From an uncultured Lachnospiraceae bacterium (GTDB taxonomy: Bacteria > Bacillota > Clostridia > Lachnospirales > Lachnospiraceae): a stretch of DNA of 64,000 nucleotides. The DNA is taken from positions 2,866-66,865 of the forward strand of contig CAMODT010000138.1 in the NCBI GenBank assembly GCA_946611535.1, read 5' to 3'. Position numbers and translations under genes: made by a program. Within the stretch, counting starts at the first letter, position 1; every line of letters starts with the position of its first letter. The notes below the pieces were generated by a model. That model saw nothing but the letters and a program-made list of their open reading frames with translations, was not told the origin of the DNA and did not search any database. Shown here in pieces: positions 2,377 through 62,713 of this stretch.

Positions 2377-3873
2377 TCACTCTTCAGCGTCTTCCATTTT
2401 CAGCTCATACTTGACGATATCCGCAATCACGTTCCCGTCCGACGAGAATGTGATCGCTCCGGCCTCCGCCGGCGTGTAGAGGACAAAGGAAGCCGCCTGC
2501 TCGCCGTCGTTGACGAACAGTTCCAGGCTGTAGCGGTCCAGGATGATTCGGAATTTGATCATCCCGTTCACCGCGTTGACCGGGAATTCGCGGATATTCA
2601 CGATATCATGCGGGAATCCGCTGTGCGTGCGGTCCACCTTCACCGTTCCGACGTCCGGCCGGAAGCGGATCAGGGTGTAATGCTCGCCGTCCTTCGCGAC
2701 GTAGATGCGGAACCACTTGTAGAGGTTGCTCACGTTGACCGGACGGATCGAGACCGTCATGTCAACGTACCGGCCGCTGATACCGCTGAGACCCAGATCT
2801 CCGTTGACCAGGATATTGCTGTATTCCACCCTGATGCCGCGGTAGTTCTCGAGTTCCCGGACCGGAAGCTGATAGAGGCGGCCGTTCTTCACGGACAGCT
2901 CTCTCGGGATCGTCATCTGGCCCATAAAGCTGAGATCGTGCTGCCGGCAGGCGGACGTCTCCCAGTTCTGCATCCATGCAATCATGATCCTGCGCCCGTC
3001 CGCAGCCTTGAGCGTCTGCGGCGCATAGAAATCAAGACCGTAATCGATCGCGTGGACCGCTTCACGCAGCAGATGCTTCTTCTGCCGGTCATAGGTGCCG
3101 ATCATGCAGACCGTCGCGTTGCCCGGATGGAACTCCAGGCCGATCGCCGACATCTCGATCGGGCTCACCAGAAGGACGTGGCGGCCGTCCAGCGGGAAGA
3201 AATCCGGGCACTCCCACATTCTTCCGTACTGGTTGTGGCAGGATGCGATGATGCTCACAAAATTCCAGTGGATCGCGTCCTCGCTCTCGTAGAGAAGGAC
3301 TCTTCCGCTTCCGTCAGGACCTTCGTTCACGATGACCGCGTTGTATTTGCCGCCTTCCATCCAGATCTTCGGGTCCCTGAAATCCTTCACGCTCCCGCCT
3401 TCCGGAATCTGGTCCGCACCGATCACCGGGTTTCCTTCATATTTTTCATAGTCCATGCCGTCCCCGAAAGCTATGCACTGCGTCTGGTAGCTCTCGATAC
3501 GGCCGCTCTCATTTCTCTCGTTTCGCACACCCGTGTACATCAGGAGGTGACGCCCGTCAGGCATTTCGACGGCGCTCCCCGAGAAGCATCCGCCGCTGTC
3601 ATACTCCTGATCCGGAGCCATCGCGGCGGGCAGGCGTTCCCATTTTATAAAATCATGCGTTTTGACATGCGCCCAGTGCATCGGTCCCCATTTGACATCA
3701 TAGGGATAATACTGGAAAAATAAATGATACTCTCCCTTGTACGGAGCAAATCCGTTCGGATCGTTCAGCCAGCCGATTCCACCCGTCACGTGAAATTTGG
3801 GCTGCTCCGCATGCGAAAAAGGAAGGTATTTCTGCTCAAAATCGCGAGCCTCGGTGAGAAGACTGCTGCCCAT
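2377..3873 (-). CDS. GH32 beta-fructofuranosidase / sucrose-6-phosphate hydrolase
   Basis: Catalytic motifs WLNDPNG, FRDP, WECPD; C-terminal beta-sandwich with S.ELF.NDG. Confidence 0.92.
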   Translation of the reverse strand: MGSSLLTEARDFEQKYLPFSHAEQPKFHVTGGIGWLNDPNGFAPYKGEYHLFFQYYPYDVKWGPMHWAHVKTHDFIKWERLPAAMAPDQEYDSGGCFSGSAVEMPDGRHLLMYTGVRNERNESGRIESYQTQCIAFGDGMDYEKYEGNPVIGADQIPEGGSVKDFRDPKIWMEGGKYNAVIVNEGPDGSGRVLLYESEDAIHWNFVSIIASCHNQYGRMWECPDFFPLDGRHVLLVSPIEMSAIGLEFHPGNATVCMIGTYDRQKKHLLREAVHAIDYGLDFYAPQTLKAADGRRIMIAWMQNWETSACRQHDLSFMGQMTIPRELSVKNGRLYQLPVRELENYRGIRVEYSNILVNGDLGLSGISGRYVDMTVSIRPVNVSNLYKWFRIYVAKDGEHYTLIRFRPDVGTVKVDRTHSGFPHDIVNIREFPVNAVNGMIKFRIILDRYSLELFVNDGEQAASFVLYTPAEAGAITFSSDGNVIADIVKYELKMEDAEE

Positions 3874-19397: not shown

Positions 19398-20381
19398 ATG
19401 AAAAAAGAACAGATCTTAGAAGAGCTCCTCATGGCCGACGGTTACCTCTCCGGCGAGGAGCTCGGCCGGAAAATGAACTGCACCCGCGCCGCCGTGAGCA
19501 GCGTCATAAAAATGCTCCGCGCCGACGGCTACACGATCGACTCGGTGACCAACCGCGGGTACCGCCTGACCGGGACCCCCAACGTGCTCACCGGCGAGCT
19601 AGTCGCCGCGCGCCTGGGTGAGAGCCGTGCGCAGCATGTCCTGGTTCTCCCCGAGATCGACTCCACCAACCGCCTTCTCAAACAGCTCGCCGACGAGGGC
19701 GCGCCGGACGGACAGGTCGTCATCGCGGACTGCCAGACCCGCGGCCGCGGCAGGCTGGGGCGGGATTTTTATTCTCCGAAGAAGAAAGGGGTTTATTTTT
19801 CCATGCTCATGCGCCCCGACATTCTTCCCGCCGAGGCCTTCAACATCACGCCCTGCGCCGCCGTCGCGACGGCCCGGGCGATCGAGCGCACCTGCGGCGT
19901 CTCCCCCTCGATCAAATGGGTCAACGATCTGCTGCTCGGAGGAAAAAAGATCGTCGGGATCCTCACCGAGATGACCCTCGAGGCCGAGACCGGCCGCATC
20001 GCGGGCATCATCTGCGGGATCGGCATCAACGTCCTCGAGGAGGAGGAAGATTTCAGTGAGGAACTCCGCGGCATCGCGGGCTCGATTAAAACGGCCGCCG
20101 GCATCGAATGCTCCCGCGCCGCCCTCGCCGCCGCCCTCACCGAGGAGATGGACGTCCTCCGGACCGGCTGGCCGGCCTGCCAGGGCGAGTTCCTTGCTGC
20201 CTACCGTGAACGGCTCGGCACAAAAGGTCCGATCGCCATCCACGATCTTCTCGGAAACAGAAAAAATGCCGACGCGATCGGCGTCGGCGATGATTTCTCG
20301 CTGCATGTGCGCTATGAGGACGGCAGCGAGGAGTATCTGAGAAGCGGCGAGATCAGCATCCGCCCGCAGAGCCCGGCTTAA
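19398..20381 (+). CDS. birA: Bifunctional biotin ligase/repressor BirA
   Basis: N-terminal wHTH (YLSGEELG), DSTN, QT.GRGRLGR, KWVNDL...KKI.GIL. Confidence 0.93.
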   Translation: MKKEQILEELLMADGYLSGEELGRKMNCTRAAVSSVIKMLRADGYTIDSVTNRGYRLTGTPNVLTGELVAARLGESRAQHVLVLPEIDSTNRLLKQLADEGAPDGQVVIADCQTRGRGRLGRDFYSPKKKGVYFSMLMRPDILPAEAFNITPCAAVATARAIERTCGVSPSIKWVNDLLLGGKKIVGILTEMTLEAETGRIAGIICGIGINVLEEEEDFSEELRGIAGSIKTAAGIECSRAALAAALTEEMDVLRTGWPACQGEFLAAYRERLGTKGPIAIHDLLGNRKNADAIGVGDDFSLHVRYEDGSEEYLRSGEISIRPQSPA

Positions 20382-21268
20382 ACCTCCGCGTAATTTCCCA
20401 GGAAAATGAACTCCGGGCACGCGCTCCTGATGCGGCCCAGCATTTCCCGAATCTTCGGGTCCGCACAGGAGGCCTCCGCGTCGAGGTAGAAGCAGAACTC
20501 GAAGTCGCGGCCGACGAGCGGGCTGCTCTCAAGCTTTAAGACATTTACCTCTGAGGCGGCGAATTCCCCAAGCAGGCGGTAGAGCGACCCCGGCGTGTGC
20601 GAGACCGTCAGGATCATCGAGATCCGGTTGGACCCGGCGTAAATCACCGGATCCTTTGCGATGCAGATGAACCTCGTGTAGTTGTTGTCGCTGTCCGAGA
20701 CCCGGTTCACGAGGGAGACGAGCCCGTAGGTCTCGGCCGCCTCCGGCGAGGCGATCGCCGCTGCGCCCGGATCGTCGGTCTCCGCAACGTAGCGGGCCGC
20801 CATGGCGGTGTTCAGCACCGGGATCACCGCGATCTTCCCCTCCACGGTCTTCAGGAACTGCGCGCACTGGCCGATCGCCTGCTCGTGGGAGCGTATGCTC
20901 GTGATATCCTCGAACCTCGTGCCGGGCTTCACCAGCAGCTGATGCCGGATCAGGATCCGCTCCGAGCGGATGATCGTCACATCGGCGGTCTTTAAGAGCT
21001 GGTAGACGGCCCGCACCGAGCCGTAGGAGTTATTCTCGATCGGGATCACGCCGTAATCGACCAGCCCGGATTTCACCGCCTCGATCACGCCCCCGAACGT
21101 CTTGAAGAACATCCGCCCGGAGAGCGGGAACATCCGCTTCGCCGCCTGCTCCGAGTAGGCACCTTTCACGCCCTGGCAGCCGATCCTGGCCTTTGCGGGA
21201 AATGTCACGTCCCCCGGCAGCAGCCTCATCTTCTTTCCTGCGATCTCGATCATCTTCTCTTCCTGCAT
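20378..21268 (-). CDS. pheA: Prephenate dehydratase with ACT domain
   Basis: QG..GAYSE, PIEN...GSV, SH.QAI.QC, N.TRF, H.PGSL...LESSP. Confidence 0.9.
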   Translation of the reverse strand: MQEEKMIEIAGKKMRLLPGDVTFPAKARIGCQGVKGAYSEQAAKRMFPLSGRMFFKTFGGVIEAVKSGLVDYGVIPIENNSYGSVRAVYQLLKTADVTIIRSERILIRHQLLVKPGTRFEDITSIRSHEQAIGQCAQFLKTVEGKIAVIPVLNTAMAARYVAETDDPGAAAIASPEAAETYGLVSLVNRVSDSDNNYTRFICIAKDPVIYAGSNRISMILTVSHTPGSLYRLLGEFAASEVNVLKLESSPLVGRDFEFCFYLDAEASCADPKIREMLGRIRSACPEFIFLGNYAEV

Positions 21269-21271
21269 TTT

Positions 21272-22282
21272 TCATTCCTCCTCGCTGATCAGCTGACGGA
21301 TCCTGCGGAGACTCGCCGCTGTTTTCGCAAATTTTTCCGGCGTGAGCGACTGCAGCCCGTCGCATTTTGCGTGCGCGGGGTCGCTGTGCACCTCGATCAT
21401 GACGCCGTCAGCCCCTGCGGCGGCGCCTGCGCGGGCCAGAGCCGGGACATAGGTGTATTTTCCGCCTGCGCTCGACGGGTCGACGATGACCGGCAGGTGC
21501 GTCAGGCTCTTCAGGAGCGGCACGGCGGCCACATCCAGTGTTCCGGGGACGGACGGGTCAAACGTCCGGATCCCCCGCTCGCAGAGGATCACGTTCGGAT
21601 TGCCGCCCGCGAGGATATATTCCGCGCTCATGAGCAGCTCCTCGCGGGTATTTGAAAATCCCCTCTTCAGGATGACCGGCTTCTCCGTCCTGCCCAGCGC
21701 GCGCAGGAGCGCGTAATTCTGCATGTTCTTCGCGCCGACCATGAGAACGTCGATATCGCAAAAGAGCGGCAGCTGGGAGGCGTCGTAGATCTCCGAGACG
21801 ACCGGCAGGCCGTATTGTTCCTTCGCGGCAAGCAGCAGGCGGATGCCTTCGATCCCGAGTCCCTGGAACGCGTAGGGCGAGGATCCTGGCTTGAAGGCGC
21901 TGCCCCGGAGGAGGTCCGCCCCGGCCGCTTTCACCGCCTCTGCGGTCGCCATGAGCTGTTCCTCCGACTCCACCGCGCAGGGTCCGGCGATGATCGTGAG
22001 GTTTCCGCCGCCGATGACCGCGTTTCCGACCCGAATTACGGTGTCGTCCGGGTGGAACTTGCGGTTTGCATTTTTATAGGGCTCCGCGACCCGCTTCACC
22101 GCCTCCACGATGTCGAGCGCGGCGATGAGGTTCATGTCGATCCGGCTCGTGTCGCCGACGAGCCCCAGGATCGTCTGAGAGGCGCCCACGGTCGGGTGCA
22201 CCGCAACGCCCTGCGCGTTCAGCCAGGAAATGAGACCCTCGAGCTGGTCCGGGTCGGGCCTGTTTTTTAAGATGACGATCAT
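21272..22282 (-). CDS. aroF: DAHP synthase (type I-beta, N-terminal regulatory domain)
   Basis: IAGPCAVES, RG.AFKP.SSPYAFQGLG, LKRG, LCERGIRTF, IVDPS. Confidence 0.92.
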   Translation of the reverse strand: MIVILKNRPDPDQLEGLISWLNAQGVAVHPTVGASQTILGLVGDTSRIDMNLIAALDIVEAVKRVAEPYKNANRKFHPDDTVIRVGNAVIGGGNLTIIAGPCAVESEEQLMATAEAVKAAGADLLRGSAFKPGSSPYAFQGLGIEGIRLLLAAKEQYGLPVVSEIYDASQLPLFCDIDVLMVGAKNMQNYALLRALGRTEKPVILKRGFSNTREELLMSAEYILAGGNPNVILCERGIRTFDPSVPGTLDVAAVPLLKSLTHLPVIVDPSSAGGKYTYVPALARAGAAAGADGVMIEVHSDPAHAKCDGLQSLTPEKFAKTAASLRRIRQLISEEE

Positions 22283-22310
22283 AACTTACTCCTTTCTGCG
22301 GGTTCCTTCA

Positions 22311-22364
22311 GGGACGGTTCCTGGGGGACGGTTCCCAGGGAACCGTCCCTGGGAACCGTCCCCC
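22311..22364. repeat. REP-like element (nested GGGACGGTTCC/GGAACCGTCCC)
   Basis: Two forward and two reverse copies of the core, in the aroF leader. Confidence 0.85.
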
Positions 22365-22368
22365 ATAC

Positions 22369-22399
22369 AAAAACCCCCGCGGCCGGCGGCCGCGGGGGT
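22369..22399 (-). terminator. Attenuator terminator upstream of aroF
   Basis: Perfect 12-bp stem ACCCCCGCGGCC/GGCCGCGGGGGT, 3-nt loop, UUUUUGU tail. Confidence 0.85.
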
Positions 22400-22432
22400 C
22401 ATTCTCTTCCTCAGGGAACCTTATTGACCCTT

Positions 22433-22519
22433 TCACGCCCAGCCGAAAAATGCCTTACCCTTCGTAAAGGTAAAGCCGGCAAAGGCGAAAAAGAAGTTGT
22501 TCCCGTTTGTTGTTCTCAT
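22433..22519 (-). CDS. Phe-rich leader peptide (MRTTNGNNFFFAFAGFTFTKGKAFFGWA)
   Basis: 28 codons, 8 of them Phe, lying between a consensus-like promoter and the terminator upstream of aroF-pheA; SD is weak. Confidence 0.8.
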   Translation of the reverse strand: MRTTNGNNFFFAFAGFTFTKGKAFFGWA

Positions 22520-22550
22520 GGCGTTCACTTGTCCATAAATGTTTTGATAT

Positions 22551-22579
22551 ACTTTACCATGTGTACGGCTCGCTGTCAA
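22551..22579 (-). promoter_or_regulatory. Sigma70/A promoter of the aroF-pheA leader
   Basis: TTGACA-N17-TAAAGT with a TG extension. Confidence 0.75.
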
Positions 22580-23483
22580 GCACCGTTTCCTGCAGAAAAT
22601 GCTGCATGTCAGCCGGCATCCTGACGCCGACCCGGATGCTGTTGCCGTTGAACGGCTGGTAGAACTGCATGAAGCCGGCGTGCAGCGCCGCCCGGTCAAG
22701 CCCTTCGATCGGGCCCTTCCCGTAGAGGCTGTCCCCGAGGAGCGGATGGCCGATGTGGCTCATGTGGACCCGGATCTGGTGCGTCCGCCCGGTCTCGATC
22801 TGCAGCTTTAAAAATGCGTAATCAGGGTACTGGCGCACAACCTCGTAGTGGGTGACCGCGCTGTCCCCGTTTTCACGGGCGACGCGCTTTATTTCCCCCT
22901 CGAATTCACGCGCGATCGGAACGTCGATCGTCCCGAAGCTGTTGTCAAATTTCCCCTCCGCCAGCGCATAGTAGACCTTGCGGCGCGTCCCCTTCTCTGC
23001 CTGCTCCACGATGCGGGCGACCGCCGTGCGGCTCTTTCCGAACGCGATGAGGCCGGACGTATCCTTGTCGAGCCGGCCGATGGTCCGGATCTCGTGGGGA
23101 TCGTGGTTCATTTTGTAATACCAGCAGAGGTAATTGGCGAGGGAATCCGAGAAATGTCCGTGGGACGGATGCACCACCATCCCGGCGGGTTTATTTAAAA
23201 TGATGAGATCCTGATCCTCGTAGACGATCTCGAGCGGTCCCTGGACCGGCACCGTCTTCTCGCTGAGCTGATCACTGAGGCGCACCTTCACAACGTCGCC
23301 CGCGCGCAGAACATAATTCACGCGCACCTGGCGGCCGTTCACGGTAATCCCGTTCGGAGTATCGTACTTCGCCCGCGAGATGTCATGGCTGACAAGTCTG
23401 AAATTTTCCTTGATCACATCCCGTACGGTACGGTTCCGCTTCACGTCGGAAGGCCGGGCGATATAGGTGAGCACTCTTAGCAT
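22554..23483 (-). CDS. RluA/RluD family pseudouridine synthase
   Basis: NKPAGMVVHP, RLDKDTSG (catalytic Asp), TGRTHQIRVHM..IGHPLLGD.LYG, ALHA. Confidence 0.92.
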   Translation of the reverse strand: MLRVLTYIARPSDVKRNRTVRDVIKENFRLVSHDISRAKYDTPNGITVNGRQVRVNYVLRAGDVVKVRLSDQLSEKTVPVQGPLEIVYEDQDLIILNKPAGMVVHPSHGHFSDSLANYLCWYYKMNHDPHEIRTIGRLDKDTSGLIAFGKSRTAVARIVEQAEKGTRRKVYYALAEGKFDNSFGTIDVPIAREFEGEIKRVARENGDSAVTHYEVVRQYPDYAFLKLQIETGRTHQIRVHMSHIGHPLLGDSLYGKGPIEGLDRAALHAGFMQFYQPFNGNSIRVGVRMPADMQHFLQETVLDSEPYTW

Positions 23484-23628: not shown

Positions 23629-23655
23629 GGGGACGGTTCCCAGGGAACCGTCCCC
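23629..23655. repeat. Minimal REP-like palindrome
   Basis: GGGGACGGTTCCC-A-GGGAACCGTCCCC, perfect inverted repeat. Confidence 0.85.
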
Positions 23656-28219: not shown

Positions 28220-28393
28220 GGGGACGGTTCCTGGGAGGCCGCCTGCGGCTGGGGACGGTTCCTGGGAGGCCGCCTGCGGCTGGGGACGGTTCCTGGGAGG
28301 CCGCCTTCGGCTGGGGACGGTTCCTGGGAGGCCGCCTTCGGCTGGGGACGGTTCCTGGGAGGCCGCCTGCGGCGGCCGGTGGGAACCGTCCCT
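28220..28393. repeat. Tandem array of five REP-like units (31-bp period) closed by an inverted core
   Basis: GGGGACGGTTCCTGGGAGGCCGCCT(G/T)CGGCT x4, then a full element ending GGGAACCGTCCC; no unique spacers. Confidence 0.9.
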
Positions 28394-29243: not shown

Positions 29244-29352
29244 GGGGACGGTTCCTGGAAGGCCGCTTTCTCCGGGGACGGTTCCTGGAAGGCCGCTTTC
29301 TCCGGGGACGGTTCCTGGGAGGCCGCCTGCGGCGGCCGGTGGGAACCGTCCC
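29244..29352. repeat. REP-like array (two 30-bp units plus a full element)
   Basis: GGGGACGGTTCCTGGAAGGCCGCTTTCTCC x2, then the full hairpin element. Confidence 0.88.
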
Positions 29353-30867: not shown

Positions 30868-30916
30868 GGGGACGGTTCCCGGGAGGCCGCCTGCGGCGGC
30901 CGGGGAGAACCGTCCC
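30868..30916. repeat. Single REP-like element
   Basis: GGGGACGGTTCCCGGGAGGCCGCCTGCGGCGGCCGGGGAGAACCGTCCC. Confidence 0.85.
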
Positions 30917-46572: not shown

Positions 46573-46654
46573 GGGGACGGTTCCTGGGGGACGGGTCCTG
46601 AAAACGGTTCCCTGTGGGAACCGTTCCCGGGACCCGTCCCTGGGAACCGTCCCT
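46573..46654. repeat. Nested REP-like palindrome
   Basis: GGGGACGGTTCC...GGGAACCGTCCCC enclosing degenerate inner copies. Confidence 0.85.
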
Positions 46655-62568: not shown

Positions 62569-62713
62569 GGGACGGTTCCCCCCGGCCGCCTTCGGCGGCC
62601 TCCCAGGAACCGTCCCCGGAAAAAGGGAAGGGGACGGTTCCCGGAGACGGTTCTCGAAAGCCGGGCTGCAAATGCAGCCCGGCTTTCAGGAACTGTCTCA
62701 AAGGAACCGTCCC
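62569..62713. repeat. Compound REP-like region: one element plus a nested ~83-bp hairpin
   Basis: 62569-62617 full element; 62631-62713 core IRs enclose GAGACGGTTC/GAACTGTCTC and GAAAGCCGGGCTGCA/TGCAGCCCGGCTTTC. Confidence 0.85.

Follow-up and report, generated by a model that had tools for sequence, protein, structure and literature searches.

A candidate phenylalanine leader-peptide attenuator preceding aroF-pheA in a Clostridia genome and its relatives

Described attenuators and the aroF leader of the window

Leader-peptide attenuation is usually cast as a proteobacterial speciality, and control in Bacillota is ascribed to T-boxes, TRAP and repressors. Here we describe a leader on the minus strand of a 64-kb stretch of clostridial DNA (contig CAMODT010000138.1; the whole stretch is called the window), in which a short open reading frame (ORF) with a run of phenylalanine (Phe) codons is followed by a terminator and by the genes aroF and pheA. 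An earlier note on this DNA had proposed a Phe-sensing, ribosome-mediated attenuation of the two genes. Our analysis supports this proposal, mainly by comparison (conservation, codon content, covariation, and folds), and we regard it as very likely, judging from sequence, that the element works as a classical attenuator of transcription, in which ribosomes sense the charging of tRNA-Phe and thereby set the expression of aroF-pheA.

In the pheL-pheA system of E. coli, a leader with a run of Phe codons, mutually exclusive 1:2, 2:3 and 3:4 helices, and a terminator respond to the charging of tRNA-Phe (PMC3082878). The resemblance to the geometry of enterobacterial pheL pointed out in the earlier note was borne out, with the Phe-run ORF, the exclusive helices, the terminator, and a prephenate dehydratase gene being common to both. 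On the other hand, the window leader shows neither sequence nor model similarity to pheL (RF01859), its host belongs to the Clostridia, it has 28 codons instead of about 15, and its Phe codons are interspersed (FFF-A-F-x-x-F-x-F). In addition, its first controlled gene encodes 3-deoxy-7-phosphoheptulonate (DAHP) synthase, so that the entry into the whole shikimate pathway, and not only the Phe branch, would be gated.

Two published leaders precede aroF itself. According to PMC11802643, which cites Neshat 2014, an aroR leader (Phe-Tyr-Phe) lies before the aroF operon of Corynebacterium glutamicum, the transcription of which is increased under Phe limitation. This aromatic leader before a DAHP synthase operon is the nearest experimentally backed functional analogue, although it comes from Actinobacteria, has three regulatory codons only, and is likened to the window leader by its description and not by sequence. 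The uORFC-13-1 motif of Acholeplasma aroF consists of a predicted upstream ORF with promoter, ribosome-binding site, and a Phe-coding U-run just before a terminator; it occurs only before aroF and was proposed to respond to how fast Phe is incorporated (Brewer et al. 2021, PMC8632094). This motif has been reported only from Acholeplasma and environmental sequences, with 24 representatives, and was also compared with the window leader by description only.

Other systems are related by their logic. T-boxes (RF00230) share with the window leader the tRNA-charging signal and the terminator/antiterminator output, but they contact the tRNA directly, RNA to RNA, and need no translation. Histidine leader-peptide attenuators have been predicted in Firmicutes, in the B. 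cereus group, Peptostreptococcaceae, and Erysipelotrichales (PMC9413887). These leaders, known from comparative genomics only, likewise replace T-box or repressor control in some lineages, but they respond to histidine, control other operons, and are unrelated in sequence. The aroF gene of C. difficile is among the genes with premature termination in the 5′ untranslated region (UTR), with no mechanism given (Fuchs et al. 2021, PMC8237595). Full-text literature searches, with subscription journals largely outside their reach, returned no published description of Oscillospiraceae aroF leaders.

The mechanism itself is not new: it is classical, and close analogues have been published in C. glutamicum (aroR-aroF) and Acholeplasma (uORFC-13-1). 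Nor is the element a rarity of this genome; the leader is a Phe-specialised member of a large family, widespread in Clostridia, for which neither an Rfam model nor a description was found.

Conservation, codon content and RNA structure of the leader

The Phe run of the leader stands out from its surroundings. Among the 95,279 stop-free 11-residue stretches in the six frames of the window, it is the only one with at least six Phe, and its DNA motif is single-copy in the 2.5-Mb assembly. The 181-nt leader folds with an energy of −74.7 kcal/mol (z = −5.1 against 200 dinucleotide shuffles), and 90% of the Phe-run bases are paired with downstream partners in the minimum-free-energy fold. The individual elements reported in the earlier note were all present on the minus strand: the promoter TTGACA-N17-TAAAGT, the 28-codon ORF with 8 Phe, and the sequence GGGUCA, 3 to 8 nt past the stop codon (22430-22425), which is complementary to UGACCC at 22401-22396. 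The GC terminator with its U-tail was also confirmed, with 13 pairs instead of the 12 bp given before and a T5 tract, and the reported CCUUU/AAAGG pairing turned out to be contained in a long helix of about 33 bp that joins the Phe codons to the stop region in the minimum-free-energy fold. Domain matches identify the downstream genes as those of DAHP synthase and prephenate dehydratase, in agreement with their naming as aroF and pheA.

To place the leader among its relatives, aroF loci were compared from 40 related genomes and from the 80 nearest AroF homologues in the GTDB collection with one genome per species. A homologous ORF, N-F-F-F-[AG]-F-x-[GS]-F-[TA]-F, followed by a terminator, was found at 14 of the 19 aroF loci of the same genus. 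The terminators were strong (−17 to −29 kcal/mol) and present in every leader-bearing congener, and the TTT triplets were invariant in the alignment of the 14 genus-type leaders (alignment A1). TTGACA was conserved ahead of leaders L002 to L021, including loci with another upstream gene, and so was TGnTAAnnT in relatives. Among the 80 nearest AroF homologues, a loose screen detected an aromatic-rich short upstream ORF in 66, of which about 60 were left once the filter had been tightened and evident false positives discarded. The conservation check proposed in the earlier note thus came out in favour of the leader, since the aromatic run, the in-frame start, and the Shine-Dalgarno (SD) sequence are kept in those 14 congeners and in most of the 80 homologues.

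Leader carriers include Oscillibacter valericigenes Sjm18-20, Angelakisella, Marasmitruncus, and Acetobacterium carbinolicum. Leaders rich in Phe or tyrosine (Tyr) were also present in metagenome-assembled genomes (MAGs) labelled Kiritimatiellae, Lentisphaerae, and Verrucomicrobia (L066, L098, L071, L078, and L105; AroF identity 52-60%), which could mean either that the leader-aroF unit was transferred horizontally or that these sequences were mis-binned. Upstream of the leader, the neighbouring genes differ between loci and are in many cases divergent, indicating that the leader-terminator unit goes with aroF and is more than the terminator of the rluD-like gene that lies upstream in the window. 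The distance between stop codon and terminator was similar across 62 leaders (median 34 nt, interquartile range 32-40). For this analysis we defined a working family, the Oscillospiraceae-type aromatic leader before aroF, and the window leader shows all of its features: the aromatic run, the hairpin GCUUUACC...GGUAAGG in codon register, a terminator about 34 nt past the stop codon, and aroF downstream.

Some approaches to conservation were uninformative. A degenerate DNA pattern for FF[AG]FxxF[TA]F matched 36 of 401 family genomes (one per genus), with a similar result for the reversed control, and it was discarded outside the genus. A MAFFT alignment of both leader subtypes (A2) was also set aside, as the duplicated GCYUUUAC caused the hairpin to be mis-registered. 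Strain differences in four metagenomes were few and were located in loops, N-terminal codons, and the promoter spacer, several of them coming from a sister species; none of these differences, anecdotal as they are, fell in the Phe codons or in the stems. At one locus of the same genus (L010), a Clostridiales-1 RNA (RF01699, 103 bits; 2589-2759, minus strand) lies between the leader terminator and aroF, which explains why that leader is located 342 nt upstream of the gene.

Signals for translation were widespread in the family. An in-frame start with an SD-like 4-mer located 4-13 nt upstream was present in 57 of 72 non-redundant leaders (79%), 52 of these starts being ATG, as compared with 45 of 332 out-of-frame starts (14%) in the same regions. 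Across the family, the aromatic run always lies in a frame having both start and stop.

The codon content of the leaders followed the composition of the operon. Three types of gene follow aroF, namely pheA (27 loci), tyrA, encoding prephenate dehydrogenase (51 loci), and aroB, encoding 3-dehydroquinate synthase (11 loci). The Tyr fraction, Y/(F+Y), was 0.17 in aroF-pheA leaders (n = 17) vs 0.50 in aroF-tyrA leaders (n = 37; Mann-Whitney p = 5e-8), and it was near zero in the genus of the window. In-frame UUY/UAY swaps that track the operon product are not predicted by a constraint acting on the RNA only.

Analysis of alignment A1 with RNAalifold recovered two helices, one being the hairpin within the ORF, the other the terminator. 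In the ORF hairpin, GCUUUACC...GGUAAGGY, the 5′ strand encodes [GS]-F-[TA] and the 3′ strand G-[KR]-[AV]; 90.9% of its cells are paired, and an A-U pair is compensated by G-C in 5 of the 14 sequences, where Thr/ACC with GGU becomes Ala/GCC with GGC. The terminator had 94.3% of cells paired, with changes on both sides in 6 of 10 core pairs. When the 1:2 helix and terminator of the window were imposed on the same alignment, 75.8% of cells were paired, vs at most 52.6% with slid partners, and none of 500 shuffles reached the covariation score of this structure. The lower part of the 1:2 helix, in which the Phe codons UUCUUUUUC face the purine tract at the stop codon, was kept in 9 to 14 of the 14 sequences (63% of cells paired). 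The ORF hairpin followed by AUUUUU was scored as terminator-like in our scan, and by analogy it is probably a pause hairpin for RNA polymerase.

The ORF hairpin was found in an identical codon register in 29 of 76 leaders, including Tyr/Phe leaders of Oscillibacter (Oscillibacter valericigenes Sjm18-20). This shared scaffold, with a common hairpin in the same codon register, suggests that Phe-type and Tyr/Phe-type leaders are probably homologous. We find evenly poised the broader proposition that the element is a branch of one homologous attenuator family, present in no catalogue or paper that we found, with members in many genera of Oscillospiraceae and other Clostridia and look-alikes in the MAGs labelled Kiritimatiellae, Lentisphaerae, and Verrucomicrobia, whose specificity would have been re-programmed by second-position UAY to UUY swaps on a fixed RNA scaffold as pheA replaced tyrA in the operon with aroF.

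The proposed switch and competing explanations

From the sequence elements, their conservation, the covariation of the two helices, the start and SD signal, and the match between codons and operon, we infer the following course of events. Transcription would start from the TTGACA/TGnTAAAGT promoter, and RNA polymerase would probably pause after the ORF hairpin until a ribosome begins the 28-codon ORF. With plentiful Phe-tRNA, the ribosome would reach the UGA codon and cover CGGCUGGGCGUGAAAGGGUCA, allowing the 13-bp terminator to form and transcription to stop before aroF. When Phe-tRNA is scarce, the ribosome would stall on the FFF-A-F-x-x-F-x-F codons, the 1:2 helix would be broken, and the freed strand around the stop codon would pair with the 5′ arm of the terminator (2:3), resulting in readthrough into aroF-pheA. 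If the leader were not translated, the 1:2 helix would sequester region 2, and termination would be the default outcome.

The folds of the leader are compatible with such a switch. In the window, the energies of the 1:2, 2:3, and 3:4 helices were −39.5, −26.9, and −29.5 kcal/mol, respectively, the 2:3 value corresponding in constrained folds to the pairing of CGGCUGGGCGUGAAAGGGUCA with UGACCCCCGCGGCCG at 22401-22385. The stalled state was modelled with the ribosome footprint in the middle of the Phe run and the RNA made only up to the terminator loop. The folding of alternative conformers suggested in the earlier note gave, in silico, the expected difference: 83% of the terminator 5′ arm was paired upstream with the ribosome stalled on the Phe run vs 33% with the ribosome at the stop codon, and 80% of the 5′-arm partners in the stalled state were region-2 bases that are otherwise engaged in 1:2. 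In the set of 62 leaders, the 5′ arm was at least 50% paired upstream in 53 leaders in the stalled state vs 31 at the stop codon, with the median partner located 5.5 nt before the stop codon. Pairing of each leader's own region 2 with its own 5′ arm, a test that took the place of single-sequence shuffling, was better than that of swapped pairs (permutation p = 5e-5, 62 leaders).

Several observations weigh against this interpretation. The own-vs-swapped effect is small across the family (−10.6 vs −9.4 kcal/mol), and the 2:3 complementarity was not significant against single-sequence shuffles in the window (z = −0.3) or in most leaders. A ribosome stalled at the last two Phe codons (22450-22445) would mask the antiterminator. 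The ATG of this genome is preceded by a poor SD, with only a distant GGA upstream, a caveat that the earlier note had rightly raised; a good SD was found in the closest relatives only, such as L002, the closest one (AroF 86% identical), with GAGG 5 nt upstream of the start, and translation of the copy in this genome is presumed from the family. The lack of a leader before aroF in 5 of the 19 congeners implies that it is dispensable. The association of Tyr fraction with operon type was corrected for kinship only by clustering on AroF identity (0.25 for pheA vs 0.54 for tyrA, p = 0.016), not by a full phylogenetic correction. As for expression, the sole RNA trace was one 158-nt metatranscriptome contig over 22410-22567 (bovine gut, run X25), an anecdotal signal of depth 2 that covers the promoter-proximal leader and ends about 10 nt before the terminator stem, and among the assembled contigs of four metatranscriptomes there was none over 21968-22302 (the 5′ third of aroF and its 5′ UTR) or over the part of aroF examined (21900-22282). 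This material was too thin to count as RNA evidence. The main weak links of the attenuator model are, in our view, the poor SD of this genome and antiterminator statistics that are no more than modest.

Other explanations of the leader have to be weighed against these data. There is a small chance that the leader is translated and the terminator regulated, but by a signal other than Phe-tRNA charging, such as a general sensing of translation rate or coupling, or nascent-peptide arrest by a free ligand in the manner of TnaC, which arrests in response to tryptophan. Conservation between genera of the peptide past the Phe run, G-K-A-x-F-G-[LW]-A, may suggest a function of the peptide itself, and codon starvation and peptide-mediated arrest are not separable by sequence data. 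However, these conserved residues are encoded by the 3′ strand of the covarying hairpin and by region 2, where they change in step with their partners (ACC/GGU with GCC/GGC); outside the stems the C-terminal peptide varies freely, and the Phe-to-Tyr codon content tracks the operon product as would be expected from codon sensing. We consider somewhat less probable still that the leader RNA is untranslated and that its U-rich triplets and hairpin constitute a binding site, TRAP/PyrR-like or riboswitch-like, for a protein or ligand controlling the terminator. The weak SD of this genome, the regular spacing of the UUU triplets, the strong conservation of the hairpin, and a sub-threshold match to a PyrR binding site (23 bits, E = 0.65, cmscan) would all suit such a site, but that match is far under the gathering score of 54 bits, and a binding site would account neither for the excess of SD-preceded in-frame starts over background (79% vs 14%) nor for an aromatic run that is always in frame with a start and with a stop codon at a fixed median distance of 34 nt from the terminator, nor for the alternation of UUY and UAY at the second codon position in step with the operon product.

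The least probable explanation, and one that already fits the data poorly, is that no regulation takes place, the hairpin being the terminator of the rluD-like gene and the Phe-rich ORF a chance frame or the gene of a small hydrophobic protein. The terminator scan found no other terminator for the rluD-like gene, whose readthrough would stop here too, and five congeners do without the leader. Against this, a conserved promoter separates the rluD coding end from the ORF, the ORF and terminator also stand before aroF where the upstream genes are unrelated or divergent, no other stretch of the window or of the genome has such a Phe density, and covariation ties the ORF to the downstream RNA.

If the attenuator does respond to tRNA-Phe, transcription of the only DAHP synthase gene found in the assembly would answer, in this genus, to that tRNA only. 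Tyr may then be handled allosterically and the trp genes, judged by position, by a T-box, and the regulatory domain of AroF may be left to sense other end products. More broadly, a translated Phe or Tyr/Phe leader seems to control the pathway-entry enzyme in this genus and in most of the aroF-bearing genomes nearest to it, which predicts how abundant gut anaerobes would respond to the supply of both amino acids. The leaders also offer a natural test of how attenuator specificity evolves, with one scaffold carrying Phe codons where pheA follows aroF and a mixture of Tyr and Phe codons where tyrA does. The element was missed by gene callers and by RNA-family annotation, and a model built from these leaders would allow its annotation.

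The aroF locus, T-boxes and repeats

The positions of the elements are collected in Table 1. The promoter scored 10/12 in the promoter scan, with the TGn of an extended −10 present, and its −10 box overlaps the TAA stop codon (22556-22554) of the rluD-like gene; transcription would start near position 22544 on the minus strand. A mini-ORF of three codons, ATG GAC AAG TGA (22525-22536, minus strand), ends 5 nt 5′ of the leader ATG and overlaps the alternative GTG. An AGGAG ribosome-binding site precedes aroF, and a bidirectional terminator (20267-20289) separates pheA from the convergent birA. The aroF gene was the sole match in a search for DAHP synthases, and no second one was found in the 94.6% complete assembly.

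Table 1. Features of the aroF-pheA locus and positions of the repeat units in the window (REP, repetitive extragenic palindromic)
Feature	Position in the window	Strand	Remarks
−35 box TTGACA	22579-22574	minus	within 3′ end of upstream rluD-like gene
Extended −10 TGgTAAAGT (−10 box TAAAGT at 22556-22551)	22559-22551	minus	spacer of 17 nt from −35; promoter scan
RluA-family pseudouridine synthase gene (rluD-like)	22554-23483	minus	TIGR00005, 225 bits; upstream neighbour
Leader ORF, 28 codons + TGA, encoding MRTTNGNNFFFAFAGFTFTKGKAFFGWA	22519-22433 (ATG 22519; TGA 22435-22433)	minus	8 Phe, 1 Trp
Alternative start GTG, in frame with leader ORF	22528	minus	GGA 5 nt upstream
Regulatory codon run FFF-A-F-A-G-F-T-F (region 1)	22466-22495	minus	6 Phe per 10 codons
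Hairpin inside ORF, GCUUUACCUUU / AAGGGUAAGGC, then AUUUUU	22452-22476	minus	−12.9 kcal/mol; upper part of 1:2 helix
Full 1:2 helix, about 33 bp, Phe codons UUCUUUUUCGCCUU with GGGCGUGAAAGGG around stop	22414-22504	minus	−39.5 kcal/mol
Region 2 lower strand CGGCUGGGCGUGAAAGGGUCA, spanning stop codon; predicted antiterminator 5′ strand	22425-22445	minus	constrained folds
Intrinsic terminator (3:4), 13-bp stem, 11 G-C pairs, 3-nt loop, U5 tail	22400-22369 (stem 22400-22372)	minus	−29.5 kcal/mol
Four REP-like palindromic units GGGACGGTTCC, between terminator and aroF SD	22362-22311	no strand	not part of the attenuator proper
aroF, DAHP synthase	21272-22282	minus	NF006421, 428.9 bits; PF18152 (N-terminal ferredoxin-like regulatory domain) + PF00793
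pheA, prephenate dehydratase, 3 nt after aroF	20378-21268	minus	PF00800; convergent birA ends operon
REP-like unit GGGACGGTTCC	22311-22362, 23630-23654, 28221-28392, 29245-29352, 30869-30916, 46574-46653, 62569-62713

T-boxes are defined by a stem I with a specifier loop and by the conserved T-box sequence AAnnnGGGUGGUACCGCG, which forms the antiterminator. With Rfam 15, no family reached the gathering threshold in the 64-kb window or in 18 related leaders, and neither the T-box (RF00230) nor Phe_leader (RF01859) had a match even at E ≤ 10 in 22200-22700. The statement of the earlier note that no T-box is recognisable here was therefore upheld by a negative scan, the positive control being locus L022, from another family of the same order, in which a T-box (124.7 bits, 1160-1389) stands before aroF in place of the leader peptide. 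The specifier loop of that T-box, GAAGUUCC, could hold a UUC (Phe) specifier in a candidate register. Sub-threshold Rfam matches in 22200-22700, to miRNA precursors on the REP palindromes, to PyrR (23 bits), and to His_leader (18.2 bits), were rejected as chance or generic hairpin similarity.

Elsewhere in this genome there are five T-box matches, and one of these precedes trpB by about 2.5 kb on that gene's strand (G000:C174:5964-9862). The tyrA and aroA genes form a separate operon with its own promoter (G000:C176:5337-7689, minus strand), at which neither a leader nor a T-box was found. A crude genome-wide scan for further leader-peptide attenuators returned noise and a single false lead, at C122:17921, which is a bidirectional terminator flanked by REP-like units. 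The scan says nothing on the absence of such attenuators, as its own filters missed the aroF leader.

The four REP-like units between the terminator and aroF are absent from L002. The unit GGGACGGTTCC occurs in 29 copies in the window vs 1.5 expected, often in inverted arrays. In metagenome contigs, inverted units bracket many different terminator hairpins, with a depth of 500-760x vs about 14x in the flanks. Six copies precede the tyrA promoter on G000:C176.

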